Shown: positions 12,634-32,217, numbered from the stretch's first letter. The stretch: 54,857 nt of DNA from a virus (IMGVR_UViG_3300020042_004711:1-54857), one strand, 5' to 3'. Program-made: numbers and translations. Notes: generated by a model not told the origin, from the letters alone.

Positions 12634-12861
12634 TTACTTAGCGCGTTTAAGGTATTCTGTGATTGCCTCGGAGAACAGCTTGTTTGGCTCGTGTCTCCCA
12701 ATGAACCAGTTGTAGACGCATTGTTTAGATACGCCAAAGAAGTCCATTACGTCAGCTACAGGAATCTCGCGGGAGATGCAGAATCTCCCTAACTTCACGC
12801 CAGTGTTCCGACCATCGGCATCCCGATTAGCGCGAACAGTCTGCTGTGAGTATCCAATCAC
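12634..12861 (-). CDS. Helix-turn-helix DNA-binding protein
   Basis: VADVMDFFGVSKQCVYNWFIG matches a Cro/Xre-type HTH pattern. Confidence 0.7.
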   Translation of the reverse strand: MIGYSQQTVRANRDADGRNTGVKLGRFCISREIPVADVMDFFGVSKQCVYNWFIGRHEPNKLFSEAITEYLKRAK

Positions 12862-15585: not shown

Positions 15586-15857
15586 TTTTTAGGTTTGTTT
15601 ATTTTGACCGTATGGTCTGAGTTACGAGTAAAGGAACGATTGGCACTGGGTGACTTGAGCTTTAAGTTACTAGGTGCGTTGGTCCCTCCTTTGGATAGCG
15701 GTACAACATGGTCAATGTCTTTGCCCGTGCGGTCCACACCTTTAGCATCCATTGTCCGTCTAGCCTTCTGACGCTCCATGCGCTTGGGTAGTTCCCCGCG
15801 GTCTTGCTGTTGTTCGTATTCCTTCTTGTAAGGACGTGGTTTGTTTACGTATGGCAT
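15582..15857 (-). CDS. HNH endonuclease-family protein
   Basis: DIDHVVPLSKGGTNAPSNL...NRS motif. Confidence 0.8.
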   Translation of the reverse strand: MPYVNKPRPYKKEYEQQQDRGELPKRMERQKARRTMDAKGVDRTGKDIDHVVPLSKGGTNAPSNLKLKSPSANRSFTRNSDHTVKINKPKK

Positions 15858-16038
15858 GAGGTTCTCCTGTAGGTGGGTTCAAACAAGCATCATAGTATTT
15901 TTTAGGCATGGGTGCCTTCTTGTCAAGAAGGGTTCTTAACCACTCAGCACCACCAAGTTCTTGCAATATCATCCAGTGTCTGTCAGACATTCTTACTTGT
16001 CTTCCTACTAATGGTTCGAGCGGTTTAGGTCTTGGCAT
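15760..16038 (-). CDS. Small putative DNA-binding protein (ribbon-helix-helix-like N-terminus)
   Basis: RQVRMSDRHWMILQELGGAEWLRTLLD strand-helix-helix pattern; C-terminus overlaps the HNH gene. Confidence 0.5.
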   Translation of the reverse strand: MPRPKPLEPLVGRQVRMSDRHWMILQELGGAEWLRTLLDKKAPMPKKYYDACLNPPTGEPHAIRKQTTSLQEGIRTTARPRGTTQAHGASEG

Positions 16039-18485: not shown

Positions 18486-20308
18486 TAACAATCTCCGTAA
18501 GTTCGAGCCATGCCTGACTCACAATCAAGAGGTAACCCCTTCGCCCATGCGGGAGGCATCCTCATACATGCTTCAATATATTCTTTTGCGTAGGCCGCGT
18601 CGTCTTCAGGTACGATGCAAGCAATTGCATCATGCACAGTCAGCACCACGCGGTATAGCTTCTCAATCTGAATCATCTGCTCGCCAATGATGCAACGGGC
18701 AACTGCTTGGCAAAGGTTCTCTGCAACCTTGCCGCCATACAACCTGTTCATACCCGTGCGTGTCTTGTACGTAAACTCCCCGCTACTGTGGCGCGTAAGC
18801 TCGGGGTAACTCTGCATCAGGCCATTTGGTAAGCTAATGCCGGTAAAGGGCTCAAGCGTCATCAAACCGGGCACATCAACATTTGATGGTTTGTTATGGA
18901 GCATGTTGTTCAAGACTATGTTCAGATGATTCCACCACCCCGATATGTTTGTGTTAGCCAGTCGGTATTGTTTAATGATGAACTTGCACGTATCAATGTC
19001 GACATCTTTGCCCATTGTTTTTAACTGCATCTGAAACTTAACTGCCCCCATACCGTAACCTGCGCCAAGCACTGTGGTCTTGCCAATAAAACGTTGTTCG
19101 GGGGTCACGTCTGCTGTAGGAATACTAAAAATTGTTGCGGCCATGTATTTGTACACGTCTTGCTTGGTAGAAAACAAATGCAAAATCTTGCTCTCTCCCG
19201 CAAGCCACGCCAATACCCGTGCCTCAATCTGCGACGAGTCACAATCAATGATGACGTGCCCGCGAGGTGCAACAAGGCAACGCTTGAGTTTGCCGCCTTC
19301 TGTGCCACGGCTCGGTAGGTTCTGAAGGTTCACCTTGTCAGAGCCGCCCCACCTACCGGTGTGAGCCGCGTAGTATTTCAACGGAATAGGTAGACGACGA
19401 AGAGCGCCGCCGATATGCCCGCGACGTGCGATAGATATAAATCGCTCGGTGCGCGTCTCCTCAAGCGTAGACTTAGCCCCCACCCGTGCGGCAACTAACG
19501 CTTGCACCACTTCATTGGGATGCTCGAGTAAAGCCATGAACTCAGCGTCACTCTTAGCAAAGGCAAAGGTGTCCTTGCCTGTCGCGGGGCTGATCTTGAT
19601 GGGTGGACTAACACCCTGCTGAACAAGCAACTCAGCAAACTTGGCGCTACTGTTAAGTATTTCCTTCGTGATGCCCGCCTCAACAAACAAACGTTCCTTG
19701 CGGTCACGCACCTCAATAAGATGGGACTCGAGCTTATCCACGTCAAGCTCAAGCAGTGGGTCACTGAACATGCGGATGGTGATGTCAATCAAACGCTTCT
19801 CAATGATGGGGAAGCTAGACATCTCGTGGTACAGCTTATAGGTTAGCTCGACGTCGTTCTTGCAGTACTCACCATACTGCATCAACTGATCAGCAGGAAA
19901 GTCCTCAAGGCGCAAGCCCTTGGCATCGTTCACCTCCAAACCTTTTGCACCAATACCAAAATGCTCAGCCAACGCGCCAAGCCGTCCGCTAACAGTAATA
20001 CCAAACAATGCTCTAGCCATGGACAAGGTATCAAACCAAGCCTTGGGTTTTTGCCCAAAGACCCACGTCAGGATAGCCGCATCAAACATTGCGTTATGGG
20101 CTAGCACGAAGTGGTTCCTCCAATCGAAGTGCGCCAACCACTCGGCCGTCTCTTCCAAACTTCCGGTGAACCATTCGGCCGGTTCGGAATTTACCTTGAC
20201 CGCCACGCCAATCACTTGGAACTGCGGGTCACGCACGTACTCCTCCGTTGTTAGACGGGTTAAAGAATACTCACGGCTGTAGTACGTCTCGAAGTCGATG
20301 GTGATCAT
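18485..20308 (-). CDS. DNA polymerase family A with 3'-5' exonuclease domain
   Basis: IDFETY (ExoI), AHNAMFD (ExoII), NLQNLP, DSSQIEARVLA (motif A), RFIGKTTVLGAGYG (motif B), TVHDA (motif C). Confidence 0.93.
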   Translation of the reverse strand: MITIDFETYYSREYSLTRLTTEEYVRDPQFQVIGVAVKVNSEPAEWFTGSLEETAEWLAHFDWRNHFVLAHNAMFDAAILTWVFGQKPKAWFDTLSMARALFGITVSGRLGALAEHFGIGAKGLEVNDAKGLRLEDFPADQLMQYGEYCKNDVELTYKLYHEMSSFPIIEKRLIDITIRMFSDPLLELDVDKLESHLIEVRDRKERLFVEAGITKEILNSSAKFAELLVQQGVSPPIKISPATGKDTFAFAKSDAEFMALLEHPNEVVQALVAARVGAKSTLEETRTERFISIARRGHIGGALRRLPIPLKYYAAHTGRWGGSDKVNLQNLPSRGTEGGKLKRCLVAPRGHVIIDCDSSQIEARVLAWLAGESKILHLFSTKQDVYKYMAATIFSIPTADVTPEQRFIGKTTVLGAGYGMGAVKFQMQLKTMGKDVDIDTCKFIIKQYRLANTNISGWWNHLNIVLNNMLHNKPSNVDVPGLMTLEPFTGISLPNGLMQSYPELTRHSSGEFTYKTRTGMNRLYGGKVAENLCQAVARCIIGEQMIQIEKLYRVVLTVHDAIACIVPEDDAAYAKEYIEACMRMPPAWAKGLPLDCESGMARTYGDC

Positions 20309-20652
20309 GGAGTTGTGGCTCGGGGTCTAACGATCACGCGCTTGCTTTGTGTAATAGTTGATGGTGAGCTCGCGTCCATTACCTCCCGCAACTTGGCGTT
20401 TATGTCCATGTTGACGTTCCACTGACCTTGGCCGATAACAACTTCCTCAATGATGCGATTCATGTCGTGCATACGCCTAACCCGTTTATACACGCGACGG
20501 ACAACGTAACGCTCAAACCGCGTAAGTTCAAGCTCGCTAATTAGAATTCCAAGGTTCTTCAAGGAACGGGTATCAAATTCTTGGGACTCAAGTTTCTCCA
20601 TGAGAGCCTTGAGTTGATCGCACACAAGGGGGCGTAGTAGGTTGTCTATCAT
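20305..20652 (-). CDS. Hypothetical protein
   Basis: ATGA-coupled between the nuclease and polymerase genes. Confidence 0.6.
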   Translation of the reverse strand: MIDNLLRPLVCDQLKALMEKLESQEFDTRSLKNLGILISELELTRFERYVVRRVYKRVRRMHDMNRIIEEVVIGQGQWNVNMDINAKLREVMDASSPSTITQSKRVIVRPRATTP

Positions 20653-20954
20653 GCTGGTTGCTTTCCTATTTGTTCAAGAACTGCTGTAACTTGATCTATG
20701 TTTGTTTCGTTGATCACAAGCGCATAGCCTCCCGCGTCTTCAATGGCGCGTAACTCTCTACGTTGCAATGCTGTAGTGGTATTCTTGCCCGCCTTGCATT
20801 CAATAGCTATGAACTGCCCGCAGTAACACACTATGATATCGGGTATACCGGTACGGCCAAAGCCGTTACTAGGTGGGAAAAAGAAGTAGGCATCATACTT
20901 GTTTAGTATGACTGTTACTTTACGCTTTACTTTGGTTTCGGGGGTGAGTGCCAT
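20649..20954 (-). CDS. VRR-NUC-type nuclease / Holliday junction resolvase-like protein
   Basis: TPETKVK, GIPDII, AIECKAG, LQRREL, AGG motifs. Confidence 0.8.
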   Translation of the reverse strand: MALTPETKVKRKVTVILNKYDAYFFFPPSNGFGRTGIPDIIVCYCGQFIAIECKAGKNTTTALQRRELRAIEDAGGYALVINETNIDQVTAVLEQIGKQPA

Positions 20955-20960
20955 ACTTCT

Positions 20961-20988
20961 AATGTAGGGCATAACTGGACTATGTCAA
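20961..20988 (-). promoter_or_regulatory. Sigma70-type promoter at the start of the replication operon (probably leaderless mRNA)
   Basis: TTGACA-16nt-TACATT; ATG 6 nt downstream of the -10 box with no RBS. Confidence 0.6.
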
Positions 20989-21025
20989 GTCTTTTTATAA
21001 AAATATTTTATAGGTGTTAACACTA

Positions 21026-21054
21026 GGACACATCGACAACTTGTCGATAAGTCC
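21026..21054. repeat. 29-bp palindromic element, copy 1
   Basis: GGACAC ATCGACA ACT TGTCGAT AAGTCC. Confidence 0.9.
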
Positions 21055-21060
21055 ATAGAC

Positions 21061-21088
21061 AAAAAAAGACCCGCACTGGGCGGGTCTC
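21061..21088 (-). terminator. Rho-independent terminator ending the early operon
   Basis: AGACCCGC-5nt-GCGGGTCT stem followed by a T run on the - strand. Confidence 0.85.
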
Positions 21089-21092
21089 TTAC

Positions 21093-21989
21093 TTACTCTT
21101 GCTTGTGCATCATAGCAAATAGATCATCTAGTATGTAGAAGTTTCTATCGTTGAATCGAAAGCCTACGTCATCTACTAGTTCGCTGTTCTCCATTAGCTG
21201 AAGTACAGCTAGGGCACTCTGTGCTTTCTCCGGCAGCTCGTCGAATGGTTTGTATTCTATAGCATGGGAGTCAGCGTGGTAGCGCTTGATCAGATACGCA
21301 TCGTTGTATTGCACGACTACTGCGTACTGCTTATTCATCATCTTCTCAGCGAGCAGGTACTCAAGCATTGCCTTCTCATACTTCTCAGATAAGAAGTCCC
21401 TGCGCATTACCTCTTTTGCACCATCGGGTATCTCCTCTCCGCGTAGCAACAGATACAGATACCTCTGCATGATCGTAGTATTCGGCACCATGTCGCTGTG
21501 CTGTATCGGCCGTGTTAGGTCGCGTATAGCACCGTGAAACGCACTGTTAATCTCTGCACTTGCCTTTTCAATTATCTCTGCCGCTATCATAGGTAGGAAG
21601 GTCTTCTTCACGATGCGCACCGCGCCCGTTAGCTTGTTAGTGGTACTCGTGTTAGCACTACCTCGTTGGTTATCAATACGCCACGATTTAATGCAGTAGA
21701 TCGGCTCCGTCGGACCTCTACGCGCATAGCGAGTGTCAATAGAGATTTCACCAAGATGCTCAGCGCCCTTGTAGACACGCACAATACGCAAGAACTCTAC
21801 GTTTTCAGGAGGTACGATCTTCCTGTCCTGTATAGCAGATTTGCTTGTGTTGTATTTAATGCCCTGATTACTTATACCTTTAGTGGTAAAGGTAAACGCT
21901 GGCATGTCTAAGGCAAGTTTGTTTACCAACTCCTGTAGGAATGGGTCAAGCGCATAGAGTGTGGGTATTTGAATGTTTGCAAATGACAT
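21093..21989 (-). CDS. Hypothetical early protein
   Basis: 298-aa ORF, last in the early operon. Confidence 0.75.
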   Translation of the reverse strand: MSFANIQIPTLYALDPFLQELVNKLALDMPAFTFTTKGISNQGIKYNTSKSAIQDRKIVPPENVEFLRIVRVYKGAEHLGEISIDTRYARRGPTEPIYCIKSWRIDNQRGSANTSTTNKLTGAVRIVKKTFLPMIAAEIIEKASAEINSAFHGAIRDLTRPIQHSDMVPNTTIMQRYLYLLLRGEEIPDGAKEVMRRDFLSEKYEKAMLEYLLAEKMMNKQYAVVVQYNDAYLIKRYHADSHAIEYKPFDELPEKAQSALAVLQLMENSELVDDVGFRFNDRNFYILDDLFAMMHKQE

Positions 21990-21994
21990 AGTTA

Positions 21995-22879
21995 TTACCA
22001 GTTAAATTTGTTGAGGATGTCTTGAACATTTGTTTTGAGTTCTAGTCGTGCGCCCATATCAGAACGTAAATCGTCTATGTCGGTCGTCGTCACGGCCTGC
22101 TCTAGCATACGACGTGCCTTTTCCAGCTCAGGGTCTTTGGTGACATTGAGTCGGGTCAGCAAGTCGCATAGGTCTATAGCGTTGTCAATCAAAGAGTCAC
22201 GGAAAATCTTACGATCACCATCTTCTTTGTCAGTCAGCTTATCGGTCATGTGCATCAGCACAGCATGTAGCCTATCCCATGGGTCACGCATAGCTTCTGA
22301 TAGTTTGTCGTTGAACATCTTCTCGTACTGCTCTTGCAAGTCAGCCTTGACACGAGCCTCGCAGTTGATGCGGAAGTCACCACTCTCAGGCACAGGCAAG
22401 AAGTTGTACTCAAACTTGAAGCGTCGAGGCAATGTCTCCACATCGGGGAACTCATCAGCACGGTAATACTTACCCAGCTTGAACGCTTGGTCATTCTTTA
22501 TCTGTGGGTAAGCAATGATGAAGTCTTTGACTAGCGAGTAGAAGTTAGCCTCCATCGTGCCGAGTTGCTCGCGGTACTTGAAGAAGTTCTCCATAGGTAA
22601 TAGACCTACGCCCTTCATCCAAGGCAAGGTCTGCGTTGAGTTCCATGCTCTGCACTTGGCCGAGTACTTCTCTATCTTCTTGAGGTGGTCACTGCCCGCC
22701 ATGAGGTACTTGTATACCGAGCCCGCATCTTGGTCAGCTTCTTTGGATGTGTTGACATCCATGGTTGTCTCGTTATCACGCTTGCGTGCAGTCCATGTGC
22801 TGATACGCAACTCCACAAGCATGGCCATGGATGATAAGGAGACGATGGGTGCCGTAATCGTCAATGTATTCTGTGTCAT
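21995..22879 (-). CDS. Early protein, possibly DUF3150-like
   Basis: MLVELRISTWTARKRD...TLPW...LLP pattern; AGGAG RBS; family assignment is recall only. Confidence 0.55.
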   Translation of the reverse strand: MTQNTLTITAPIVSLSSMAMLVELRISTWTARKRDNETTMDVNTSKEADQDAGSVYKYLMAGSDHLKKIEKYSAKCRAWNSTQTLPWMKGVGLLPMENFFKYREQLGTMEANFYSLVKDFIIAYPQIKNDQAFKLGKYYRADEFPDVETLPRRFKFEYNFLPVPESGDFRINCEARVKADLQEQYEKMFNDKLSEAMRDPWDRLHAVLMHMTDKLTDKEDGDRKIFRDSLIDNAIDLCDLLTRLNVTKDPELEKARRMLEQAVTTTDIDDLRSDMGARLELKTNVQDILNKFNW

Positions 22880-22897
22880 AGGATTCTCCTGATTAAA

Positions 22898-23947
22898 TTA
22901 AATGGATTTATCGACAACCTGTCGAAGTTTCCGAGGTACGAAATGGTTCTCTCTGAAGAACTTGTTGTTAGTGCGTGATGGCTTAGTACCCTTGGGTAGA
23001 CGTACGCGCTCGAACACTTGGTCTCTGTGCAAGTAAGACACGAACGTCTTCATCCAATCGACCGTGTTTACAATGCTTAGTTTTCTTGAGTTCCTCGACG
23101 CCCACATGTGGCTACCCGCTTGGGAAGCAATGATGTGCAGTAGTTGTACCCACTCATCAGGGTCGCCTCTGTCTATCATCGCTTGCGCTTTCTGACACGC
23201 TATAGGGTGAAAGCCCACGCCTCTACGCCAATCGTTGTAGCCGTAGCCAAACGGAATAGCATCACGCGCATAGCGTTCATCCCACAGTTCGTCACGTTCT
23301 TGTGGTGATAGCTTTTGGTCGTTACTCGCCTTGTACTCCTCGAGGCTGAAGAACCCTAAGTCCGTGGCATACTTCTCGAATGAGATGGTAATTTCATCTG
23401 ACTCGAACGTATCGGTAACAGCAAGCACAACTTGCGCCCACGACAGGAACCCTTCGTATCTCTGCATGTACTCATTTAGCTTGCCCCGCTTAGACCGTGT
23501 GTTGTAAGCAACAGGGGCGGTGAGCAGGAACGACTTACCGTCTACATACTGGAAGTCAAGCCTACCAGTATTACGCGGTAACTCATACATCTCTGTACGA
23601 TTGTGGTTTACGCAGTAGAACAGACGGCCCTCGTTCCACAAGAAGTTCTGAGACACATCCGGTAAGAAGTTATGGATGTTGTCAGGCGAGTACGCGCTGT
23701 AGTATTTGGGTGCAAATACAGAATAGGTATTGTCCGAACGCCACTCAACGAGCGTCTGTCCGTAGTACCGCAACTGCACCGTGTTGTCATCAGGCATATG
23801 GATGTCAGCCATGTAGTGATGCTGACGGCTACCCAGTGGGCGAATCTTGTCCTTGTGCCCACGGATAGGTTTAGTTTTGTCGTACTGTAGCTTATAGGCT
23901 ACGAAGCCCCCTGCTACCTTGCGCACGTCTGCTGTGTTGTATCCCAT
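22898..23947 (-). CDS. Hypothetical early protein
   Basis: 349-aa ORF; its last codons carry palindrome copy 2. Confidence 0.75.
   Translation of the reverse strand: MGYNTADVRKVAGGFVAYKLQYDKTKPIRGHKDKIRPLGSRQHHYMADIHMPDDNTVQLRYYGQTLVEWRSDNTYSVFAPKYYSAYSPDNIHNFLPDVSQNFLWNEGRLFYCVNHNRTEMYELPRNTGRLDFQYVDGKSFLLTAPVAYNTRSKRGKLNEYMQRYEGFLSWAQVVLAVTDTFESDEITISFEKYATDLGFFSLEEYKASNDQKLSPQERDELWDERYARDAIPFGYGYNDWRRGVGFHPIACQKAQAMIDRGDPDEWVQLLHIIASQAGSHMWASRNSRKLSIVNTVDWMKTFVSYLHRDQVFERVRLPKGTKPSRTNNKFFRENHFVPRKLRQVVDKSI
22904..22932. repeat. 29-bp palindromic element, copy 2
   Basis: GGATTT ATCGACA ACC TGTCGAA GTTTCC. Confidence 0.85.
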
Positions 23948-23948
23948 T

Positions 23949-24146
23949 TCATTTTCCCTTCAATAAAGAATGTTGGATATAAGACATGCTTCTGCTGAGC
24001 ATGTTGCTTTCAAGCAACTGTTTCTGTTGCTGTAGTATTTGGTTCTCGCTTGCGAGACACCCGATGTGAGGGCGCGTGCCCTGTTTATAAACAACCTGAC
24101 CTTTGGCTAATACAACTAGTGGCATATGGTTCGGATACATCGACAC
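23949..24146 (-). CDS. Hypothetical protein (start uncertain)
   Basis: Fills the operon gap; 5' end overlaps palindrome copy 3. Confidence 0.45.
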   Translation of the reverse strand: MSMYPNHMPLVVLAKGQVVYKQGTRPHIGCLASENQILQQQKQLLESNMLSRSMSYIQHSLLKGK

Positions 24147-24161
24147 GGTGTCGATTACTCC
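24133..24161. repeat. 29-bp palindromic element, copy 3
   Basis: GGATAC ATCGACA CGG TGTCGAT TACTCC. Confidence 0.9.
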
Positions 24162-24316
24162 GCCTCCCCGTTGTAAAACGCAATCAAGTGTTTGACCACC
24201 TGACCGTTCGTTGGTTGAAAGCCTAGCTTAGACACGAGCCCTTCCCTTACCTCTTGCAGTAGATCAAAGGTCTCTTGGTTAAGCGTGACCACAAAGTTTT
24301 GTACAGTTGGTTTCAT
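24155..24316 (-). CDS. 53-aa ribbon-helix-helix-like protein (not in the ORF track)
   Basis: MKPTVQNFVVTLNQETFDLLQEVREGLVSKLGFQPTNGQVVKHLIAFYNGEAE; ATGA-coupled to the upstream ORF. Confidence 0.6.
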   Translation of the reverse strand: MKPTVQNFVVTLNQETFDLLQEVREGLVSKLGFQPTNGQVVKHLIAFYNGEAE

Positions 24317-24561
24317 TTCTTTTCATCCAGTACTCGTTGATTGGTTTCCAACTCCATACGAAAGATCGCGGTCATTGGGGCGACAACTGCTGACATAAGA
24401 TGTGGGCGCTTGAGGACATGGTTACGCCCTTGCGGTACATCCTTGAGCCACTCAGTTCCAATGGTCTGAGAGGCGTTGAGCAACGATGCAATCTGCATCG
24501 CCTCATCCAGACCCATCAGAAACTTTGAGTCTCCGATACACAATATAAACTCATCAGACAT
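24313..24561 (-). CDS. Hypothetical protein
   Basis: AAGGAG RBS; operon continuity. Confidence 0.7.
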   Translation of the reverse strand: MSDEFILCIGDSKFLMGLDEAMQIASLLNASQTIGTEWLKDVPQGRNHVLKRPHLMSAVVAPMTAIFRMELETNQRVLDEKK

Positions 24562-24562
24562 T

Positions 24563-25852
24563 TTAAATCTCCTTGATAGTTACGAGTTGACCCCTTGGTG
24601 GGGTATAGCTATCGTTGCCGATGATGCACCACAAGATAGGCGCATTGACTCGCGCCCAACCCGGCGGATGGCTGTGCATATACCCATCAGAGAGCATCAC
24701 GAGTGCGTCAGGCTTTAGTTTATGTTCGGTCATAAACTCAGGTACGCAATCAGGGTCTGTACCACCACCGCCCTTTGGACTTGTTCTGCTGACAATGTCA
24801 GTTACGTTTAGTGTGTACGTCTCATGCCCATTCACGCGAGTATCCCAATACAGGACATCCACACGATCAGGCAGAACATCCTTGATGAGTTTGTTCATCT
24901 CAGATAAGAACGCATCAAGCAGAGGTCCGTGTACAGAGCCTGACGTATCCATCGCTATCACGAGGTGCTTCATCTTCTTACCGATGATCGCAGGCAGGAT
25001 AACGTCTTGCCACAAGTAGTTCTTGTGAGCCTTGCGCCACGATGGTGCGTCACGCCCGCGTAAGTTAGTCTTCACAAACCGCTTGAGCACTTCACGCCAG
25101 TCAACCTTCGGTGCAAGAAGTTCACCGATCTCTCTGGACATATTGCCACCTACTTTGCCAGCATAGATTGCGCCTTGGCGCAGCGCGTGATCAATGTCCT
25201 GTTCGAGTTGCCTCTTCTCATCCTCAGACAGACCATCCTTTGCGCCATCCCAATCGTGCTCGTCGAGGGACTTTCCGACATCCTGTCGATTAGTCTCTGG
25301 ATGCCCGTTCCCACTCTTGGTAGGACCGTCAGCCTCATCGCCATCATCACATGGTGGACCGTCACCATCAGGTGGTGGGTTGTCAGCCTGCTCTTGACGC
25401 AAGATATCAAACACTTGACGCGCATCCATACCGCGGAAGCGCGTGTCAAAGCAACCCTGATACTTACCGGTCTTAGGGTCGCGTGGATGCGAGAGGACAT
25501 TCTCGTTGGGGTCCATGTCGAACAAGTGAAGATTGATCACATGGTCGCACGCACGATTCGCTAGATCGTGATCGATATCATGCAAGTTCTTCCATATCGT
25601 TAGATGACGATAGCACTTGTGCATGTTCTCGTGCATCACAAGGAAAGCCAACTCTTTGTCAGTCAAACTATCCACGAACGCACGACCATACTCTGCATCA
25701 CGACCATTGGTGCGTGCAGTAGACACAGTATCAGACACGCTTGTCTTGCCTACCATAAACAAACCTGCAAATAGCGCAAACATCTTGTCGCGCATCAGGC
25801 TCACATGAACAAGTTCGATACGTTGCTCAGCTGTCAGTTTTCTCATTAGCAT
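24563..25852 (-). CDS. Metallopeptidase-vWA protein (DUF2201-like)
   Basis: N-terminal HENMH (HExxH); acidic linker; C-terminal vWA MIDAS DTSGS, GGGGT, LSDG. Confidence 0.85.
   Translation of the reverse strand: MLMRKLTAEQRIELVHVSLMRDKMFALFAGLFMVGKTSVSDTVSTARTNGRDAEYGRAFVDSLTDKELAFLVMHENMHKCYRHLTIWKNLHDIDHDLANRACDHVINLHLFDMDPNENVLSHPRDPKTGKYQGCFDTRFRGMDARQVFDILRQEQADNPPPDGDGPPCDDGDEADGPTKSGNGHPETNRQDVGKSLDEHDWDGAKDGLSEDEKRQLEQDIDHALRQGAIYAGKVGGNMSREIGELLAPKVDWREVLKRFVKTNLRGRDAPSWRKAHKNYLWQDVILPAIIGKKMKHLVIAMDTSGSVHGPLLDAFLSEMNKLIKDVLPDRVDVLYWDTRVNGHETYTLNVTDIVSRTSPKGGGGTDPDCVPEFMTEHKLKPDALVMLSDGYMHSHPPGWARVNAPILWCIIGNDSYTPPRGQLVTIKEI
25268..25296. repeat. 29-bp palindromic element, copy 4 (intragenic)
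   Basis: GGACTT TCCGACA TCC TGTCGAT TAGTCT, inside the linker of the vWA gene. Confidence 0.75.
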
Positions 25853-26015
25853 TTCTATGCTCCTCTCGTTGTTGAATTACAAATACCTCGATGTCATGCG
25901 CGGCCTCATGCTCACCTATCAGGCGAAGTTGAGCCGCGAACGCCATGCCCGCTTGATAAAGGTTGTCGTATTGGTTAGTCATCTTCATTCTCTGACCCAC
26001 CCTCGTAAGTTTCAT
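25827..26015 (-). CDS. Hypothetical protein (start probably near 25989)
   Basis: Operon continuity; GGAGGG upstream of an internal ATG. Confidence 0.5.
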   Translation of the reverse strand: MKLTRVGQRMKMTNQYDNLYQAGMAFAAQLRLIGEHEAAHDIEVFVIQQREEHRNANEKTDS

Positions 26016-26229
26016 TGAAGTCAGTCAACGCCCGTATCTTGCTCTCGTTGATTACGTGCTCGGTCACCGACCAGTCAAGAGTACGCGCCTCTATGGGCAG
26101 GTGCATATACTTCCTAGTCCGATTGACAAAGCCGTGTGCATCGAACGATGACTCGAACACATACAGGTGCTCAACTTCGTGGTCTTTAAAGTCGGCTTCA
26201 CGCCCGACTGCTATCCATATGCTTCTCAT
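25975..26229 (-). CDS. Hypothetical protein
   Basis: AAGGA RBS; ATGA coupling. Confidence 0.65.
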   Translation of the reverse strand: MRSIWIAVGREADFKDHEVEHLYVFESSFDAHGFVNRTRKYMHLPIEARTLDWSVTEHVINESKIRALTDFNETYEGGSENEDD

Positions 26230-26489
26230 TGCATCTTCCTTGGTTGTTTATCAATAACTACTGCTGTGTCTTCCAGCTTGGTTATCTTGCTGTTGGACAA
26301 CGGCACAGACGTATCGAACTCCATGGACAGGCGTGTCCACACAGTTGCGTTCCATTTGGCTAGACGCTGGCTTGTGATGTGAATCCATCGCCCGCTGGTC
26401 TTGTCGACTACATCAAAGCCCTCATTGACAGGCACGATGTAGCAGTTGCGGTAGCTGACAGGGGCTCCGATTGTTGCTGTTCTAGTCAT
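26226..26489 (-). CDS. Hypothetical protein
   Basis: AGGAG RBS; ATGA coupling. Confidence 0.65.
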   Translation of the reverse strand: MTRTATIGAPVSYRNCYIVPVNEGFDVVDKTSGRWIHITSQRLAKWNATVWTRLSMEFDTSVPLSNSKITKLEDTAVVIDKQPRKMQ

Positions 26490-26659
26490 TTGCTTTCTCC
26501 TATTTCTTTTAAGTCATGCACTTCCATCTCACCGCTCACGCTATCCCCTATTGGGTTCGCGCGGTCGTACATAAGTATCTCGGCTTGCTCTTTCGTGTCA
26601 GCCAGTACTGTGAGTTCTTCCTGATATGTAGTTATCACTACGCCTTTCCATGCTTTCAT
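26486..26659 (-). CDS. Hypothetical protein (57 aa, not in the ORF track)
   Basis: MKAWKGVVITTYQEELTVLADTKEQAE...; AAGGA RBS; ATGA overlap with the next gene. Confidence 0.65.
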   Translation of the reverse strand: MKAWKGVVITTYQEELTVLADTKEQAEILMYDRANPIGDSVSGEMEVHDLKEIGESK

Positions 26660-26683
26660 TTTGTTTTCCTTGGTTGGTTAGTT

Positions 26684-26712
26684 GGACTTATCGACACCGT
26701 GTCGATTTATCC
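26684..26712. repeat. 29-bp palindromic element, copy 5
   Basis: GGACTT ATCGACA CCG TGTCGAT TTATCC; overlaps the ATPase stop codon. Confidence 0.9.
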
Positions 26713-27783
26713 CTTGAGTCCTGCGAACATGTACTGGTTCTCACGAGCCCATGTCACGAACGCAGGGTGTGCAATAGCCCAATTCTTCTTGGCTTTAACT
26801 TCGAGTAAGCTGTTGATGAAGAGTGCTTGTGCTTCTTTGGGCATACGCTTGACGAAGCGCATCCACGTTCCGAATGTTTCACGGGTGCATACTGCTACGC
26901 CCTTGAACATCAAGATACATTGAGCCGCTGGACTTGTAGGCAAAGTCACAGTGTCGGGGCTAGACTCGATAGCCTCACGGGTCGGGAGTTGATCAGCCAT
27001 CGAGACGTATGCTTGCAAATCACGCGAGCCTGAAAAGCCCAGAGTGCCGTCAAGGGCCGCGATCAAAGCGTTATCTGTTAAGCGATCACGGATGGATACC
27101 CAATGCGACGCCTTGAACAACGAACGTGGTGACACGAACGCAATCTGTGATGCGTCACGGGGGTTGAAGATGTATGGGTTCTCTTTCTGCCCGCCATCTT
27201 GGTACGATGCTAGGCAATGGGGATACTCACGCACCCACGCTTGCACCTCGGGTGCTACGCCATTGTTGACCGCCCAACCTAGCCATTCTTCAGCATTGGG
27301 CTTCATGTAGGGGGCCCATGTCTGACGATTGCGGGTATGCGCTTTGGCAGAGTCACCAACACCATCGCTGTCATCATTGCCCGTGGTAAAGACGATTGAG
27401 GCAGGATGCAGGTTGAAATTACCCATCCGGCGTTCGTGCAACAAGGGATGCAACGTATTGCGTACGTAGTCGTCGGTCTTGGTCCACTCGTCGATCATGA
27501 TCACGCATGGTTCGTTAGTATGTAGCTTGAAACTTGCGGCTGGATAGAAGTCCAAGGTGCGTGTCGTATGGTTAGGGATGGGCATGCCCGCCTGACCCAC
27601 ATCGGTGTTCGGACCATCGATGTATACCTTGTGATAGCCTGTGCGCTCGACGATCACATCTTGGATCGCGGTCTTACCAACGCCTGGTTCTCCAGTAAGG
27701 TGTACTGAGTTAAGCCCGCTGTTGAGGATAAGATCGACCGCTTCTGTGAAGTTGATGCGACGAGAGTGTTTGATTTCTGACAT
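26707..27783 (-). CDS. AAA+ ATPase (MoxR/AAA_5-like)
   Basis: Walker A GEPGVGKT, Walker B IMIDE, sensor TTGN, SPRS. Confidence 0.85.
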   Translation of the reverse strand: MSEIKHSRRINFTEAVDLILNSGLNSVHLTGEPGVGKTAIQDVIVERTGYHKVYIDGPNTDVGQAGMPIPNHTTRTLDFYPAASFKLHTNEPCVIMIDEWTKTDDYVRNTLHPLLHERRMGNFNLHPASIVFTTGNDDSDGVGDSAKAHTRNRQTWAPYMKPNAEEWLGWAVNNGVAPEVQAWVREYPHCLASYQDGGQKENPYIFNPRDASQIAFVSPRSLFKASHWVSIRDRLTDNALIAALDGTLGFSGSRDLQAYVSMADQLPTREAIESSPDTVTLPTSPAAQCILMFKGVAVCTRETFGTWMRFVKRMPKEAQALFINSLLEVKAKKNWAIAHPAFVTWARENQYMFAGLKG

Positions 27784-27810
27784 TTTTGTTTCCTAATAAA
27801 AGAAGAGAAA

Positions 27811-27839
27811 GGAATAACCGACACCATGTCGATTAGTCC
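27811..27839. repeat. 29-bp palindromic element, copy 6
   Basis: GGAATA ACCGACA CCA TGTCGAT TAGTCC. Confidence 0.85.
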
Positions 27840-27843
27840 GAGG

Positions 27844-28101
27844 TTACGAACGAGGGTACTTCTGATTGGTATCTAACAGAGTCTGTGGTGCAGACGCAAC
27901 AGTTACCAACATGTAAGGACCCTTGCCGTAGGGTTGCACTACACACCAAGATTGGCGTGCAGAGATCGCGGCTTGATTGCCGCAATGGAGGCACGAGTGA
28001 TAGCCCAAGGCCCATCGCTCGTGGTGAACGTCATCACCGCACATGACACATGAATGCCAGGCTGTGTAATCGTCATCGTATTCTGTAGTATGGTGAGTCA
28101 T
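27844..28101 (-). CDS. Small zinc-finger protein
   Basis: CVMCG...RWALGYHSCLHCG (two CxxC pairs). Confidence 0.7.
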   Translation of the reverse strand: MTHHTTEYDDDYTAWHSCVMCGDDVHHERWALGYHSCLHCGNQAAISARQSWCVVQPYGKGPYMLVTVASAPQTLLDTNQKYPRS

Positions 28102-28283
28102 TGTGGTATCTCCCAATAAGTAAGGACAAGTTCCTCGGTCTCGGGGTTACGCCAAAAGTGAATCTCGGTGTAGTCACGGCCCGCGACTTGGCAGTCAACG
28201 AGTGCGTGCTTCCAACGCAGTTGGCACACAAGGGGTAACAGCATATCTTGAAGCGAGACAGTATCTTTAGGTGAGATGATCAT
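28098..28283 (-). CDS. Hypothetical protein
   Basis: ATGA coupling at both ends. Confidence 0.6.
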   Translation of the reverse strand: MIISPKDTVSLQDMLLPLVCQLRWKHALVDCQVAGRDYTEIHFWRNPETEELVLTYWEIPQ

Positions 28284-28540
28284 CGATTGATCTCCCCTGC
28301 ATACATGCGGTCGCTACGATCATGGATATAGCCCATGACCATCTTGGGCGTGTAGCGCAAGCCGGTGGCGCGGTCGAGTACATCAGCGGCCGGTACTTCA
28401 GCCTTGTGTGTGATGCGGTTAAGGTGAGCAAGGAACTCATAGTCTGTGATCAAGCCGTTGACGTACTGCTCAACGATAGGCATGCAGTCAATGGCGATGT
28501 TGCGGTTGTGGTCATCCCACTCGGTGGTTTGGTCGGTCAT
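28280..28540 (-). CDS. Hypothetical protein
   Basis: Start MTDQTTEW with GGAG RBS and TAATG overlap. Confidence 0.6.
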   Translation of the reverse strand: MTDQTTEWDDHNRNIAIDCMPIVEQYVNGLITDYEFLAHLNRITHKAEVPAADVLDRATGLRYTPKMVMGYIHDRSDRMYAGEINR

Positions 28541-28629
28541 TACGGTCTCCAATAGAAAAGGTCGAGGGCAAGCACAATGAGTGCAATAGCAATGATGAAG
28601 CGCGAGAAGCGCTCGAAGTCAGTGAACAT
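28540..28629 (-). CDS. 29-aa single-pass membrane peptide
   Basis: MFTDFERFSRFIIAIALIVLALDLFYWRP; GGAG RBS; first gene after the consensus promoter. Confidence 0.6.
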   Translation of the reverse strand: MFTDFERFSRFIIAIALIVLALDLFYWRP

Positions 28630-28665
28630 AAGTATCTCCAATAAAGAAGGAACACAGGGAAGGAA

Positions 28666-28695
28666 GGACACATCGACATGGATGTCGAATAGTCC
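28666..28695. repeat. Palindromic element, copy 7 (4-nt centre)
   Basis: GGACAC ATCGACA TGGA TGTCGAA TAGTCC. Confidence 0.85.
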
Positions 28696-28746
28696 GACCT
28701 AGGACATAAGTACATAGGAAGTTCTAATATCTAATGTACTACGTAC

Positions 28747-28775
28747 ATTATACTCCTATTTCTTGACAATGTCAA
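28747..28775 (-). promoter_or_regulatory. Perfect-consensus sigma70 early promoter
   Basis: TTGACA-17nt-TATAAT on the - strand. Confidence 0.9.
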
Positions 28776-28815
28776 GTGCCTGTCCGTGTTTTGGCACCAT
28801 ATTCCGTGTTTTTGG

Positions 28816-29493
28816 TTATTTGTCCCAGTCATCCACAATCTTCGATAGGGCTAGCCGTTGCTTCCTTGCCTCGATAGCTTTAAAGATAGAACCATCGAAC
28901 AACGCATCAACATCCTCATCCGATGCTACTGGCGTGTTCTTCTTTTCGATTAGGCGGTCGGTGACACCGCGCATCATCAGTACGGGCTTGTAGTATTGTT
29001 TGATTGGTGGGTCAGGCACGATCTTTACCGCTCGCAAGTCAGCGGGCAAGTTCTTGGCATCAAAGGGATTGATTGATGCTTGCTTAAGCAGTATCTCCAT
29101 GATTTCGGGGTCGCGGGGCTTGACCGATGCGACGGCCTCGTCCGTTGGGAATGTCTCACGGAACTGATCTTGTTCGGGTAGCAGGTCGGACACTATGCCC
29201 GCTTTGGTGCGCTTAGCAAGAACGGAGCGATGTTCGCTAAAGTGATAGGGATTTACGCAATGGGATGTTTTGCACCACTTCACCATCCGACCATGCACGG
29301 GGATGTACCTTATGGCGGTGAATAGGATACGGACAACGGAGTTGGTGAGCATCGCTTTGGTCATCGGTGAATAGGGGCTGATGACGGGCGATGTCTGAGA
29401 GTATTCGCTGTGGGGCCACACGAAACAGTTGTCTCTGATCTCGCAGTTGTTGATGAGATCGTCGCAAGTGCGAAATTTAGGGGTGCGTGACAT
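28816..29493 (-). CDS. HNH_3 / His-Cys-box-like protein, apparently degenerate
   Basis: CFVW...WCKTSHCVNPYH motif; AAGGAG RBS. Confidence 0.6.
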   Translation of the reverse strand: MSRTPKFRTCDDLINNCEIRDNCFVWPHSEYSQTSPVISPYSPMTKAMLTNSVVRILFTAIRYIPVHGRMVKWCKTSHCVNPYHFSEHRSVLAKRTKAGIVSDLLPEQDQFRETFPTDEAVASVKPRDPEIMEILLKQASINPFDAKNLPADLRAVKIVPDPPIKQYYKPVLMMRGVTDRLIEKKNTPVASDEDVDALFDGSIFKAIEARKQRLALSKIVDDWDK

Positions 29494-29519
29494 GGATAGG
29501 CTCCTTTTGGTTAATGATA

Positions 29520-29925
29520 ATAAACACTTGCGCCACGCCCGTAAGTGTAGGCAAGAGTTTAGGAAGTTAGCTTATCATAAATATGGGGGTGTCGTCAAGT
29601 GTTTTCAAGGGGTTTAAGGCGATAAGATAAGGCTCTTATAAACACTTATGCTTTTTTGGGGTATTGTGTACATAAGGAATATTTAGCCCGTGAGGGGGAG
29701 AGATAGGATAAGTTAAGGGGAAAATCCGAGGTTTTGCTTTATAATTTCTTGAAAAAAGCGTAAGGGTATATTATTTTATTATTTAAAAAGATAGATAGAG
29801 AGAGACACAGCTAGGAAAATCAACAACTTAGGCGTGCTACACCCACAGCCATTGATAAGTTAAGTGGGTTTTTAATGATAAGCTAACTTGCTAAAGTCAC
29901 TCTTATGCGCGTAAGTGACTATTTA
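29520..29925. other. Putative replication origin / control region
   Basis: Non-coding; 21-bp inverted repeats at 29558-29578 and 29875-29895; repeated GATAAG/TAAG; AT-rich core at ~29750-29800. Confidence 0.5.
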
Positions 29926-30047
29926 TCTAATCCGTTGCTAGAACACAACTAATAAGAGCGAATAGATCATAGGATAAGTCACCAGGGTATGTGCGTGCGA
30001 ACTAGACCGTTGCTACACTTGCCGACGAGTCGACCCGACCAGCGGGC

Positions 30048-30076
30048 GGAAAAATCGACAAAATGTCGAAACCTCC
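30048..30076. repeat. 29-bp palindromic element, copy 8
   Basis: GGAAAA ATCGACA AAA TGTCGAA ACCTCC. Confidence 0.85.
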
Positions 30077-30132
30077 ACCGTTGCTAACGGAACTGGCATC
30101 GCAGATGCGACGCAAACGACGCGTTTTGGGCG

Positions 30133-30169
30133 AAAAAAAACGCCCGCCATGCACGAAGCACAGCGGGCG
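30133..30169 (-). terminator. Rho-independent terminator
   Basis: CGCCCGC...GCGGGCG stem followed by T8 on the - strand. Confidence 0.8.
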
Positions 30170-30174
30170 GAGTT

Positions 30175-30318
30175 TTACTCTACTTGCCAATCACGCAACC
30201 AATCGTCACGCACATCATCCCATAGCGGGTGAAGCGGGTTCACGGGAGCCAACAACCGAATGTCATTGTCCAATAACTCAGCCGTGTCATACATACAAAC
30301 ACGAGTTTCAATTTCCAT
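30175..30318 (-). CDS. Small acidic hypothetical protein
   Basis: MEIETRVCMYD...; GGAG RBS; followed by a terminator. Confidence 0.55.
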   Translation of the reverse strand: MEIETRVCMYDTAELLDNDIRLLAPVNPLHPLWDDVRDDWLRDWQVE

Positions 30319-30343
30319 GGTTTCTCCGGTAAGGATTAAAAGC

Positions 30344-30372
30344 GGACAAACCGACACAATGTCGATCTGTCC
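30344..30372. repeat. 29-bp palindromic element, copy 9
   Basis: GGACAA ACCGACA CAA TGTCGAT CTGTCC. Confidence 0.9.
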
Positions 30373-30380
30373 GTGGTGGA

Positions 30381-31025
30381 TTACTCCATTGCAAGCAAGC
30401 CAGAGGTCAACGAATCGATGTCATTGTCTTTGACCAATTCTTTGACACGGGCATTGATCTTGTCGACAATTACCTTGATCTCGGCTTTGCGCTCAGCAAT
30501 GCCGTCAGCATCACGCCGAGTAATCTCGGCATTGATTTTCTTGACTTCGTTCACAGACTTGTTGTCGCCTTTGCGCAACAGTTCAGTCTTTTTATCCAAG
30601 AGTCCTTCGTCATCTAACGCCTCAAGACGCTTGATCTCAGCCGCACGAGCATCGGCTTTGCGCTTTGCGTCAGGTGACTCAGCGACAGGTTTCTTATAGG
30701 CAACCTTGACGCCTTGCTCATTCTCGACAGTGAAGTTGGCACTGATACGACCAATTTGACGTTCGAACTGTTTTTGTGATGCTTCAGCAGTCCGACCGGC
30801 ATCAACAGCGCCCGTGATGATAACTTCACGCATTTTCATAAAGACCGCATAAGATGCACCCTTGATGAAATCGAACAGGTTAGCATCGAGGGTATCGAGG
30901 CGGGCTTTGCCCTGTTCCATGGCTTGCTCGGCTTTGGTGGATTGAAAACCAATGTCGAACAAGGTAGTAGTGTCAGCGTCAGAAATGACAACGGGCACAG
31001 CGATAGCAGAAGTAGCAACAGACAT
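30381..31025 (-). CDS. First gene of the leftward (early) region, helical charged protein
   Basis: 214 aa; AAGGA RBS; flanked by palindrome copies 9 and 10. Confidence 0.75.
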   Translation of the reverse strand: MSVATSAIAVPVVISDADTTTLFDIGFQSTKAEQAMEQGKARLDTLDANLFDFIKGASYAVFMKMREVIITGAVDAGRTAEASQKQFERQIGRISANFTVENEQGVKVAYKKPVAESPDAKRKADARAAEIKRLEALDDEGLLDKKTELLRKGDNKSVNEVKKINAEITRRDADGIAERKAEIKVIVDKINARVKELVKDNDIDSLTSGLLAME

Positions 31026-31063
31026 GATGTATTCCTTATAAAAGAAGTTGGCATGATCGCCAT

Positions 31064-31092
31064 GGACACATCGACGGAATGTCGATCTGTCC
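31064..31092. repeat. 29-bp palindromic element, copy 10
   Basis: GGACAC ATCGACG GAA TGTCGAT CTGTCC. Confidence 0.9.
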
Positions 31093-31482
31093 GCACTGCC
31101 CGCTGTTCTAATTGGCAGGCAGTGTTATCGGTGGACATCAACCAACCGATGATCTAATATAAGGGATGGGTCAGATAAAGGGTGAAACTCCACACGGACA
31201 ATCTATTCTTTGTGATGGACAAATCCCTCAAAAAAAATCGACTTGTCTCCGGCTAGATCATTGGCAGTTCGAGAAAAAATCTTCTCCGGCTAGACCCTAG
31301 GCTGTTCGTAGGACCAGGAGGAGAACACCACCATGGTGGGTAGGGGCAGTATTGGTAGTAGGTACCATCACACATACATACACAGTGTTCCGCGCACTAG
31401 AAGAGCAAAATTTAAAAACACCCCCCGGGTGTTAATTTGGGTCCCACAAAATCCCACTCTCCATATATTTTTTAGACCCCCC

Positions 31483-31512
31483 TTGCATAATTTGGTTCCA
31501 TGCATGTAGAAT
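31483..31512 (+). promoter_or_regulatory. Possible promoter of the packaging/late operon
   Basis: TTGCAT-18nt-TAGAAT upstream of ORF 31546. Confidence 0.4.
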
Positions 31513-31545
31513 CCAAACACCTTTTGGAGTGCACCCCTTTCCTCC

Positions 31546-32217
31546 ATGATAAAACTTGATATTGATAAAACGGTTCCGTACCCTAAAAGTACCGAATCAG
31601 ACAAAGCAGCGACCTTGCGTGAAGACATGCAATTGGCCGCCAACACAGCCGCCGTCTTAAAAGGACTGGGCGCTGATATTGAAGACTCCCCGATTGCACA
31701 AGAAGAGGCCGACGAAGTATTTGCTCAGTTTTCGGAAATTGCAAAGAAACAGTTTGAAGACGCAATGTCTGACAAACCCAAACGGGGCAGGCCACGCACG
31801 CGGCCCGACACTCCAGCGCTACTGGAGAAGGTGCCAGTCGCCCAGCGTATCAGTACAATGTTGCGCGAATACAACAACCCACTTGTTGCCGACGCAGCAG
31901 AGCTGCGCTTAGTTGTAACCAACAAGCTGCTCGACTTAGCCGGGGGCGGCGACCCTCGCATCGAAATAAAAGCGACGGAGATGCTGGGCAAGATCAGCGA
32001 CGTGGGCCTGTTCACCGAGAAAACAGAAATCACCGTGACGTACAACAACATCTCGGATATTGATGAGGCGATCAAGGACAAGATTCGTAAGATGATGAAG
32101 CTGAACGCGATTGATGTGCCGTCTGTGGACTTAGACATGAAAAAAGAATTTGAGGACCCCGAGGTGGTTGAGGACGTAACGCCCAAAGAGCCGCCCGAGG
32201 AGGAAGAAAATGTCTGA
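31546..32217 (+). CDS. Putative terminase small subunit
   Basis: Immediately upstream of and overlapping terL; IKATEMLGKISDVGLFTEKTEI segment is TerS-like. Confidence 0.65.
   Translation: MIKLDIDKTVPYPKSTESDKAATLREDMQLAANTAAVLKGLGADIEDSPIAQEEADEVFAQFSEIAKKQFEDAMSDKPKRGRPRTRPDTPALLEKVPVAQRISTMLREYNNPLVADAAELRLVVTNKLLDLAGGGDPRIEIKATEMLGKISDVGLFTEKTEITVTYNNISDIDEAIKDKIRKMMKLNAIDVPSVDLDMKKEFEDPEVVEDVTPKEPPEEEENV

Follow-up and report, generated by a model that had tools for sequence, protein, structure and literature searches.

What reads the ten closely similar palindromes that punctuate a single block of a virus genome, and what do they do there? The stretch of DNA in question, IMGVR_UViG_3300020042_004711, is a linear virus record of 54,857 bp that is rated 87% complete, with ~13% of the genome lying outside it; we refer to the whole of it as the window, and the palindromes occupy its positions 21026 to 31092. 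Phages with dispersed palindromes have been described before, but except for the stoperators of temperate mycobacteriophages it is mostly unknown what such sites do. The array described here is a set of real, conserved, co-evolving sites, and a protein of no known family, encoded by the first gene of the block (g1, 30381–31025, minus strand), is the candidate reader. Of 65 related uncultivated aquatic phages, 63 share this architecture, as does a cultured cyanophage, and it exists in at least a dozen versions, each specific to a lineage; they form a natural specificity series that can be used for finding the reader protein and its recognition code.

The pattern GGA-N3-ATCGACA-N3-TGTCGAT-N3-TCC (GGANNNATCGACANNNTGTCGATNNNTCC) matched the window nine times at up to three mismatches, with starts at 21026, 22904, 24133, 25268, 26684, 27811, 30048, 30344 and 31064 and, in the same order, 0, 1, 0, 3, 0, 1, 1, 1 and 1 mismatches. 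Shuffled windows gave a mean of 0.01 matches, and none of 100 shuffles reached nine. A tenth copy at 28666–28695 is real and is missed by the fixed-length pattern because its 4-nt centre makes it 30 bp long; the other nine have 7-bp arms and a 3-nt centre. An earlier reading of this DNA made without database searches (the sequence-only reading) had named ten copies, and all ten starts, with the gaps that follow from them, were recovered. On the plus strand the right half is TGTCGA in every copy, the invariance that this reading had described, and the left half is TCGACA in six copies, CCGACA in three and TCGACG in one. Its remark that the motif was not found elsewhere also holds for the window: with a position weight matrix built from the nine copies, sense-strand scores were at least 34.7 bits for each copy, against 10.6 bits for the best other site. 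The ten copies occupy one block of ~10 kb at a spacing of 0.3–1.9 kb. The stretch was present in 20 DNA sequencing runs labelled freshwater or lake water, with no RNA run among those listed, and megablast of positions 20000–32000 against 50,697 phage records returned zero matches. An exact scan of viral contigs with ATCGACANNNTGTCGAT found at least 117 stretches; the 80 listed hold one site each, except for one contig with two, and among these listed contigs four are relatives also found by protein, the others looking like chance.

Relatives were obtained as 65 related loci in IMG/VR retrieved with the ATPase encoded in the block. Multi-copy palindromes were present at the same junctions in 63 of them, 52 being recognized by an automated search for recurrent short palindromes and 11 more by a search that took as its seed the palindrome preceding the ATPase gene; neither the automated nor the seeded search found an array in L174 or L180. 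Within a genome the half-site is uniform, and between lineages it differs. The window's class, GGA-N3-(A)TCGACA, was found in 17 loci; other framed versions combine GAAC-N3- with CCGACA, CCAACA or TCGAAW, and the version of L147 is GGA-N3-ACCCT-N7-AGGGT-N3-TCC. Distant phages, with ATPases ~40% identical, carry CCTAAC-AWT-GTTAGG, RTTAAC-N4-GTTAAY, CGTGAC-ATAT-GTCACG, GCTGAG-N4-CTCAGC, ACCCGT-N3-ACGGGA or GGGTCA-N3-TGACCC, and the half-site changes even between phages whose ATPases are 75–80% identical. The copy upstream of the ATPase gene occupies the orthologous position in the large majority of 54 relatives, spelled in each genome's own version, and the copy within the DUF2201 coding sequence is present, framed and class-matched in 28 of 38 loci and also in L147. 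In three complete relatives all copies lie inside one genome-internal block of ~10 kb, with eight sites at 44.4–54.2 kb of a 63.6-kb genome (G001), eight at 48.4–57.7 kb of 64.8 kb (G002) and five at 30.8–40.4 kb of 64.9 kb (G004), the latter two genomes having direct terminal repeats. The sequence-only reading had placed the array on presumed first-injected DNA, and the internal position of the block in the relatives with direct terminal repeats gives this no support. In the RTTAAC-N4-GTTAAY clade (L181–L185) the 4-nt centre is often AGGA and an ATG stands 2–3 nt past the right arm, so that a Shine-Dalgarno sequence lies in the palindrome centre itself.

Among cultured phages the nearest by large terminase are Phage DSL-LC04 and the Pelagibacter phages HTVC027P and HTVC023P (48–56% identity), and the large terminases of Planktothrix phage Pag-Yong1 and Synechococcus phage MinM2 are 46% identical. 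Pag-Yong1, a cultured cyanophage, also carries the ATPase, VWA and DUF3150 genes of the block, and it has at least 22 copies of GGTTCA-N3-TGAACC within 31 kb, most of them 20–30 nt upstream of start codons. In its first 21 kb, HTVC027P lacks an array of this kind, and the link to HTVC023P-type pelagiphages is therefore limited to the structural module. We found no printed description of these arrays in the literature covered, which is without most subscription journals; the papers on HTVC023P-type phages that were searched make no mention of palindromes, promoters, hairpins, stem-loops or inverted repeats, and no paper on Pag-Yong1 or MinM2 was found in this literature. As a separate observation on Pag-Yong1 (L191, OL906435.1), the first gene after its first palindrome (6085–6648) has a paralogue just upstream of the ATPase gene (12738–13577); shared stretches of the two are 73–82% identical in nucleotide sequence, and neither matches the g1 profile.

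To examine the architecture of the site, we aligned 95 unique framed sites of the GGA class and 75 of the AAC classes by their centres. The site is bipartite, composed of an inner 6-bp element (positions 2–7 from the centre) and an outer 3–4-bp element (positions 11–14). Both elements are symmetric and nearly invariant within a class, and the centre and the spacer (positions 8–10) vary. Inner pairs 2–5 hardly vary across 328 unique sites; the aligned sites carry no information at the centre, which also differs among the window's ten copies. The three spacer positions showed no complementarity beyond chance when compared with shuffles, with z = -1.9, -1.4 and -1.1 in the GGA class and +0.4, -4.6 and -3.0 in the AAC class. 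Non-Watson-Crick inner pairs among the 328 unique sites comprised 39 G.T, 30 A.C and 108 others (binomial p = 0.34 for G.T versus A.C), hence no overall G.U excess, and T.T mismatches in the middle of the stem are seen repeatedly at orthologous positions. Within 70 nt on either side, neither a promoter nor a Shine-Dalgarno sequence nor any other conserved element stands at a fixed distance, no -35/-10 signal was seen around 104 + 85 aligned sites, the distance from the site to the next start codon is broad across the family, and Rfam gave no match at E <= 1 in 20900–31600. Because spacers and centre are uncomplementary, because there is no consistent G.U bias and because the in-gene copy is class-matched, the sites are best explained by a symmetric protein that recognizes a bipartite half-site in duplex DNA, and less well by an RNA hairpin; the hairpin formed by any transcribed copy may nevertheless matter. 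In these respects the sequence-only reading anticipated our results: it had noted spacers and centres without compensatory pairing, preferred a dimeric or tetrameric protein site to an RNA hairpin, placed most copies at gene ends or junctions and not at promoters, and recognized no known motif, in line with the lack of an RNA family in Rfam.

Since the half-site is uniform within a genome, differs at 75–80% ATPase identity and occurs as a full pattern in prokaryotic genomes at chance level, the reader should be encoded by the phage and not be a host factor. For 14 conserved families we regressed pairwise identity on backbone identity (ATPase, VWA and DUF3150) and compared the residuals of same-class and different-class pairs, excluding eight near-identical twins and permuting the class labels 2000 times. 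Residual identity of g1 was 12.8 points higher within than between classes, a difference reached by none of the 2000 permutations, and the next-best family gave +3.1; g1 is the only one of the 14 conserved neighbouring families that tracks motif class. In agreement, GGA-frame and AAC-frame loci form separate groups in the g1 tree (18/18, support 93/91), a split that the ATPase gene, which has copies on both flanks, rejects in the approximately unbiased (AU) test (p = 0.006, from a quick tree and with the group named after the tree had been seen). Just two specificity columns of g1 cleanly separate the two frame classes. With copies 1 and 2 on its flanks and a terminator of its own, the gene has the layout of an autoregulated regulator. 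By statistical association, g1 is thus a candidate reader.

The g1 product has 214 residues and matches no Pfam or PHROG family; its own family counts at least 282 proteins, all unannotated and lacking a Pfam domain. Its AlphaFold model consists of long helices and a small hairpin, with a predicted local distance difference test score (pLDDT) of 88, or 90 for residues 38–120 alone. A symmetric homodimer is predicted with a score of 0.75 versus 0.00 for the best control and an interface formed by residues 10–90; the runs agree in at least 72% of contacts, with a partner pLDDT of at least 76. In a calibration that is approximate with a custom alignment, this mark was reached by 20 of 30 solved pairs of one chain and by 1 of 23 single chains.

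Other proteins of the arm were considered as readers. The sequence-only reading had put forward the minus-strand open reading frame (ORF) 24155–24316, and as a reader of the inner half-site we rejected it: the protein is near-identical in L141 (CCGACA) and in L137 and L143 (TCGAAW) and so cannot set inner specificity, and it is g1 that covaries instead. This 53-aa protein looks like a ribbon-helix-helix protein from its sequence pattern, matches no family and is 56–68% conserved in relatives. Its N-terminal strand reads N/R-Q or T-A/K in GGA-frame and AAC-frame phages, respectively, and because of this difference it could read the outer element. The 225-aa product of 28816–29493 was also rejected, because its residual identity runs against motif class (-3.4). 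Among 30 other ORFs of the minus-strand arm, Pfam and PHROG identified no DNA-binding family, and the two further candidates of the sequence-only reading, 12634–12861 and 15760–16038, have no PHROG match.

How the copies are placed bears on what a bound protein could do. Every gene from 9697 to 31025 lies on the minus strand, and structural genes run rightward from 31546; gene content and layout suggest that the block is early. It encodes a MoxR-type AAA ATPase that is N4 gp24-like (24% identity), a DUF2201 VWA protein, a DUF3150 protein and many small ORFs without a Pfam or PHROG family, the ATPase and VWA genes together resembling N4 gp24/gp25. No tRNA was found in the window. In minus-strand order, the first unit comprises copy 1 (31064–31092), 38 nt upstream of the g1 ATG at 31025; g1 itself (31025 to 30381); copy 2 (30344–30372), 8 nt past the g1 stop codon and 24 nt ahead of the ATG (30319) with which a 47-aa ORF starts; and a terminator-like hairpin (30169–30141) that closes this small operon. 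The second unit begins with copy 3 (30048–30076), 64 nt downstream of the hairpin, and continues through a 555-bp non-coding stretch to the 225-aa gene (29493 to 28816). The third opens with a sigma-70-type promoter (28775–28747) that matches TTGACA-17-TATAAT at 12 of 12 positions, followed by the 30-bp copy 4 (28666–28695) and an ATG at 28629. Flanked by a consensus promoter and a start codon, copy 4 probably lies within a 5' leader and is hence transcribed. The unit then runs through ~20 genes with copies 5–9 to the terminator-like hairpin at the end of the block (21090–21064), whose T-run is abutted by copy 10 (21026–21054); this copy lies 37 nt upstream of the -35 element of a promoter-like site (20988–20961), past which the replication genes follow.

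Within the third unit, copy 5 (27811–27839) lies 27 nt upstream of the ATPase ATG (27783) and overlaps the stop codon of the preceding gene; copy 6 (26684–26712) overlaps the stop codon of the ATPase gene and precedes the ATG at 26659 by 24 nt; copy 7 (25268–25296), with three mismatches, is in the middle of the DUF2201/VWA gene; copy 8 (24133–24161) overlaps the stop codon of 24155–24316; and copy 9 (22904–22932) falls in the last 11 codons of 22898–23947, 24 nt upstream of the ATG at 22879. Eight of the ten copies are at gene junctions. Six (31064, 30344, 28666, 27811, 26684 and 22904) precede a minus-strand start codon by 24–38 nt, three (27811, 26684 and 24133) overlap a preceding stop codon, which falls in the variable 3-bp spacer, and two (30048 and 21026) come after intrinsic-terminator-like hairpins.

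We tentatively favour, with a confidence that falls slightly short of even, the view that the ten palindromes are duplex-DNA binding sites for a symmetric, co-evolving protein encoded by the phage, with g1 as the best candidate, and that they control transcription of the block. A symmetric (dimeric) phage protein would bind the ten sites on double-stranded DNA and co-evolve with them, reading in each half-site the inner TCGACA and the outer GGA and leaving the 3-bp spacer and the centre free. The g1 product, encoded in a layout of the autoregulated type, would be the best candidate for this role. Once made, the protein would occupy a site every 0.3–1.9 kb along the 10-kb block and would thereby control its transcription by host RNA polymerase, most likely by shut-off or as a roadblock. 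As a side effect, the repeated 29-bp sites could serve as crossover points for small gene cassettes. Block-wide control by occupancy is suggested because sites lie inside transcription units, because one is kept in a long gene and because the g1 mini-operon is regulator-like; copy 7 is kept within its gene as if to limit the gap between sites. The phage is apparently lytic and transcribed by the host enzyme, since neither an integrase nor an RNA polymerase was found and sigma-70-type promoters are present. Specifically, no tyrosine integrase was detected in the window or in four complete relatives (0 of 5 records), and Pfam and PHROG identified no repressor family among the proteins scanned.

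A number of observations weigh against this proposal. No DNA-binding fold was recognized in g1, in keeping with its lack of a Pfam or PHROG match: Foldseek against the PDB returned nothing at E <= 0.001, either for the whole model or for residues 38–120, and the best VIA-align Z score, 6.7, is within noise for helical models. Weak Foldseek rows include several winged-helix proteins at E values of 1–6 with high root-mean-square deviation, on which we base no claim, and in the ESM Atlas g1 falls into unnamed clusters only. The protein is acidic overall (isoelectric point 5.55) and basic only in residues 59–112. It also evolves fast within one motif, being 50% identical to its counterparts in L126 and L127 where the ATPase is 94% identical, and its profile detected no homologue either in Pag-Yong1 or in those array-bearing clades that are more distant. 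Class names were given to the motifs with the data already in view, and g1 could also covary by hitch-hiking with some neighbouring determinant that escaped notice. For copies 3 and 10, which come just after terminators, it is hard to see what a roadblock would achieve, and the proposal fits them poorly; they may instead serve the promoters that follow or a higher-order structure. At the level of the site, all ten copies fold as stable RNA hairpins (-8.2 to -18 kcal/mol), and at the stem base of the GGA class (positions 7–8, sense strand) G.T exceeds A.C by 32 to 11. The window itself has TGTCGG three times against one A.C case, a count that leans towards RNA but comes from non-independent sites, and in the CCAACA class the imbalance is reversed.

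Among known systems, the stoperators of mycobacteriophages and the unexplained 17-bp palindromes of Cluster O come closest. In the sections cited, Cluster A stoperators are described as many copies within transcription units, mostly in short intergenic gaps, and as sites that co-evolve with a phage protein and differ between sub-lineages (PMC9283540, PMC6550527, PMC4351075). The window's array resembles those of L5 and D29 relatives, as far as these sections describe them, in its many copies inside transcription units and short intergenic gaps, and in the joint divergence of site and protein, which here takes the form of lineage-specific half-sites and of g1 covariation as a statistical association only. 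Unlike the symmetric 29-bp bipartite palindrome seen here in the consensus of 95 + 75 sites, the stoperators so described are asymmetric and oriented with transcription; they are also spread genome-wide and read by the monomeric immunity repressor of temperate phages, whereas the present sites are confined to one 10-kb block and have a family-less candidate. For Cluster O mycobacteriophages, which are apparently not temperate, the section cited gives a 17-bp palindrome, TGTTCGG-N3-CCGAACA, in more than 30 copies of unknown function, many intergenic and about a third in coding regions, not tied to promoters; copies were seen to recombine with one another, and a dimeric protein was suspected of binding them (PMC4351075). 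The 7-bp inverted arms and the variable 3-bp centre are shared with the window's sites, a likeness of architecture and not of sequence or descent. In contrast, the Cluster O palindromes, on that description, are genome-wide, lack an outer half-site and differ in sequence, host and phage group, and that section reports neither lineage-specific variants nor a covarying protein. A further parallel is offered by Streptomyces phage phiC31, in which conserved inverted repeats (CIR) in early intergenic regions are bound by isoforms of the repressor c; this phage is temperate, and its sites, 17 bp long and without an outer element, are bound by a known repressor.

If g1 is the reader, it would represent a new DNA-binding family and a new form of whole-block gene control in apparently lytic phages. 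A broader statement, about which we are considerably more doubtful, is that the g1 family, with its 282 or more members, consists of small early proteins forming symmetric dimers that read bipartite palindromes of 29–31 bp, placed about every kb along the early block and even within a coding gene, and that co-diversify with their sites into many specificities in one abundant group of apparently lytic aquatic phages. Were this true, each lineage would possess a private early-gene switch, with possible cross-exclusion between co-infecting relatives; the sites would mark exchangeable gene cassettes, and the system would offer a model for the Cluster O palindromes.

An explanation at the level of RNA, in which transcript hairpins are read by a phage RNA-binding protein or nuclease, possibly g1 itself, for processing, stability or translation of the cistrons, is in our judgement unlikely. 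It would account for the folding of every copy and for the local G.T excess of the GGA class described above, for the position of all ten copies on the transcribed strand of one-directional operons, six of them shortly upstream of start codons, and for a copy 4 that is probably transcribed from a consensus promoter; the AGGA centres of the RTTAAC clade, with ATG close behind the right arm, would suit it as well. However, most hairpin-protein recognition conserves the loop rather than the stem sequence, and here the reverse is observed, with an unconserved would-be loop on a conserved stem. The uncomplementary spacers, the lack of an overall G.U bias and the recurring mid-stem T.T mismatches also speak against it, as do the class-matched copy kept in the middle of an ORF, a start-codon spacing that is not fixed across the family, the two copies after terminators and the absence of an Rfam match at E <= 1.

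That the copies are recombination linkers without a dedicated binding protein, homogenized by gene conversion and enabling cassette exchange, appears improbable. The small genes between conserved anchors do vary from phage to phage, and the 57-aa gene located after copy 6 (26486–26659) is found behind another copy in L144, where homology sets in 22 nt from the centre of the copy. In all, this gene occupies different slots of the block in three phages (window 26486–26659, L144:9359–9538 and L137:15723–15898). In L137, however, the same cassette adjoins no detected copy, which leaves one clear relocation in all, and gene conversion would not explain why inner pairs 2–5 are near-invariant over 328 sites alongside drifting spacers, why an in-gene copy is class-matched or why a single protein family covaries. 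The PeSL of T4-type phages are, in the sections cited, repeated motifs that flank small variable early genes, for which modular shuffling was proposed (PMC2839356, PMC4122927). Unlike PeSL, which on that description combine a promoter with a terminator stem-loop, the present sites have no promoter element, and their half-sites are sequence- and lineage-specific. Of two relocations seen, one is bounded by a copy (L144) and one is not (L137), and crossover at the sites is accommodated as a side effect by the duplex-DNA site that we favour.

It is highly improbable that the sites are promoters of the kind known from coliphage N4, hairpins (cruciforms) read by an RNA polymerase that the phage encodes. 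The N4 virion polymerase reads hairpins with a 5–7-bp stem and a 3-nt loop, present as three copies near the genome end with specific loop bases. The 7-bp arms and 3-nt centre of the window's sites fit this geometry, the block shares gp24/gp25-like ATPase and VWA genes with N4 (24% identity), and a giant virion-type protein of 2806 aa is encoded at 1002–9422. Yet no RNA polymerase was found in the window, itself 87% complete, and neither the near-end location nor the specific loop bases nor the virion polymerase of N4 was found here. The 2806-aa protein matches only DarB-like/LPD39 proteins and nothing among PDB sequences, and it has one D-x-D-x-D in a non-polymerase context; PF00940 matched none of five records, with a positive control that was equally silent. 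The centre base is unconserved, one clade has an ATG 2–3 nt after the arm, and sigma-70-type promoters are present. The giant protein has features of its own: its C-terminal third is DarB-like/LPD39, its N-terminal 1,890 residues are without a family, a HEALH zincin-like string stands near residue 1713, and a PKAMQS(D/N)(L/M)FG-like peptide occurs at least three times (at about residues 615, 718 and 902).

A decoy or borrowed operator for a host transcription factor, an option of the sequence-only reading, would match a bacterial operator in size and symmetry but is barely credible, given that the half-site differs between close relatives (75–80% ATPase identity) and that the full pattern has 1 exact match, the chance level, in 596 Gb of prokaryotic genomes from 185,579 species. 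Of that reading's interpretation as a whole, the DNA–protein site and its junction position are supported, and the first-injected DNA, the host decoy and 24155–24316 as inner reader are not.

Several further features of the region were recorded. The 555-bp stretch between copy 3 and the 225-aa gene (29494–30047) is AT-rich and without an ORF, an Rfam match or a tRNA. Upstream of copy 1, TGTCC/GGACA words recur, and the divergent control region (31246–31310) contains the direct repeat TCTCCGGCTAGA-N5-GGCWGTTCG twice, at 31246 and 31283, 37 bp apart; this repeat may be a second operator. Within the block, the minus-strand ORF 27844–28116 encodes 90 aa with two CxxCG pairs and has no Pfam or PHROG match; judged by its sequence, the product looks like a TraR/DksA-type zinc ribbon, and the reading frame is uncertain because an overlapping 60-aa frame (27833–28015) also matches relatives by tblastn. 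In the structural module, between the portal and head genes, the plus-strand ORF 36206–37330 encodes 374 aa with PHROG matches to ferrochelatase in the N-terminal half and to 2OG-Fe(II) oxygenase in the C-terminal half, a putative fusion that is unusual within such a module.

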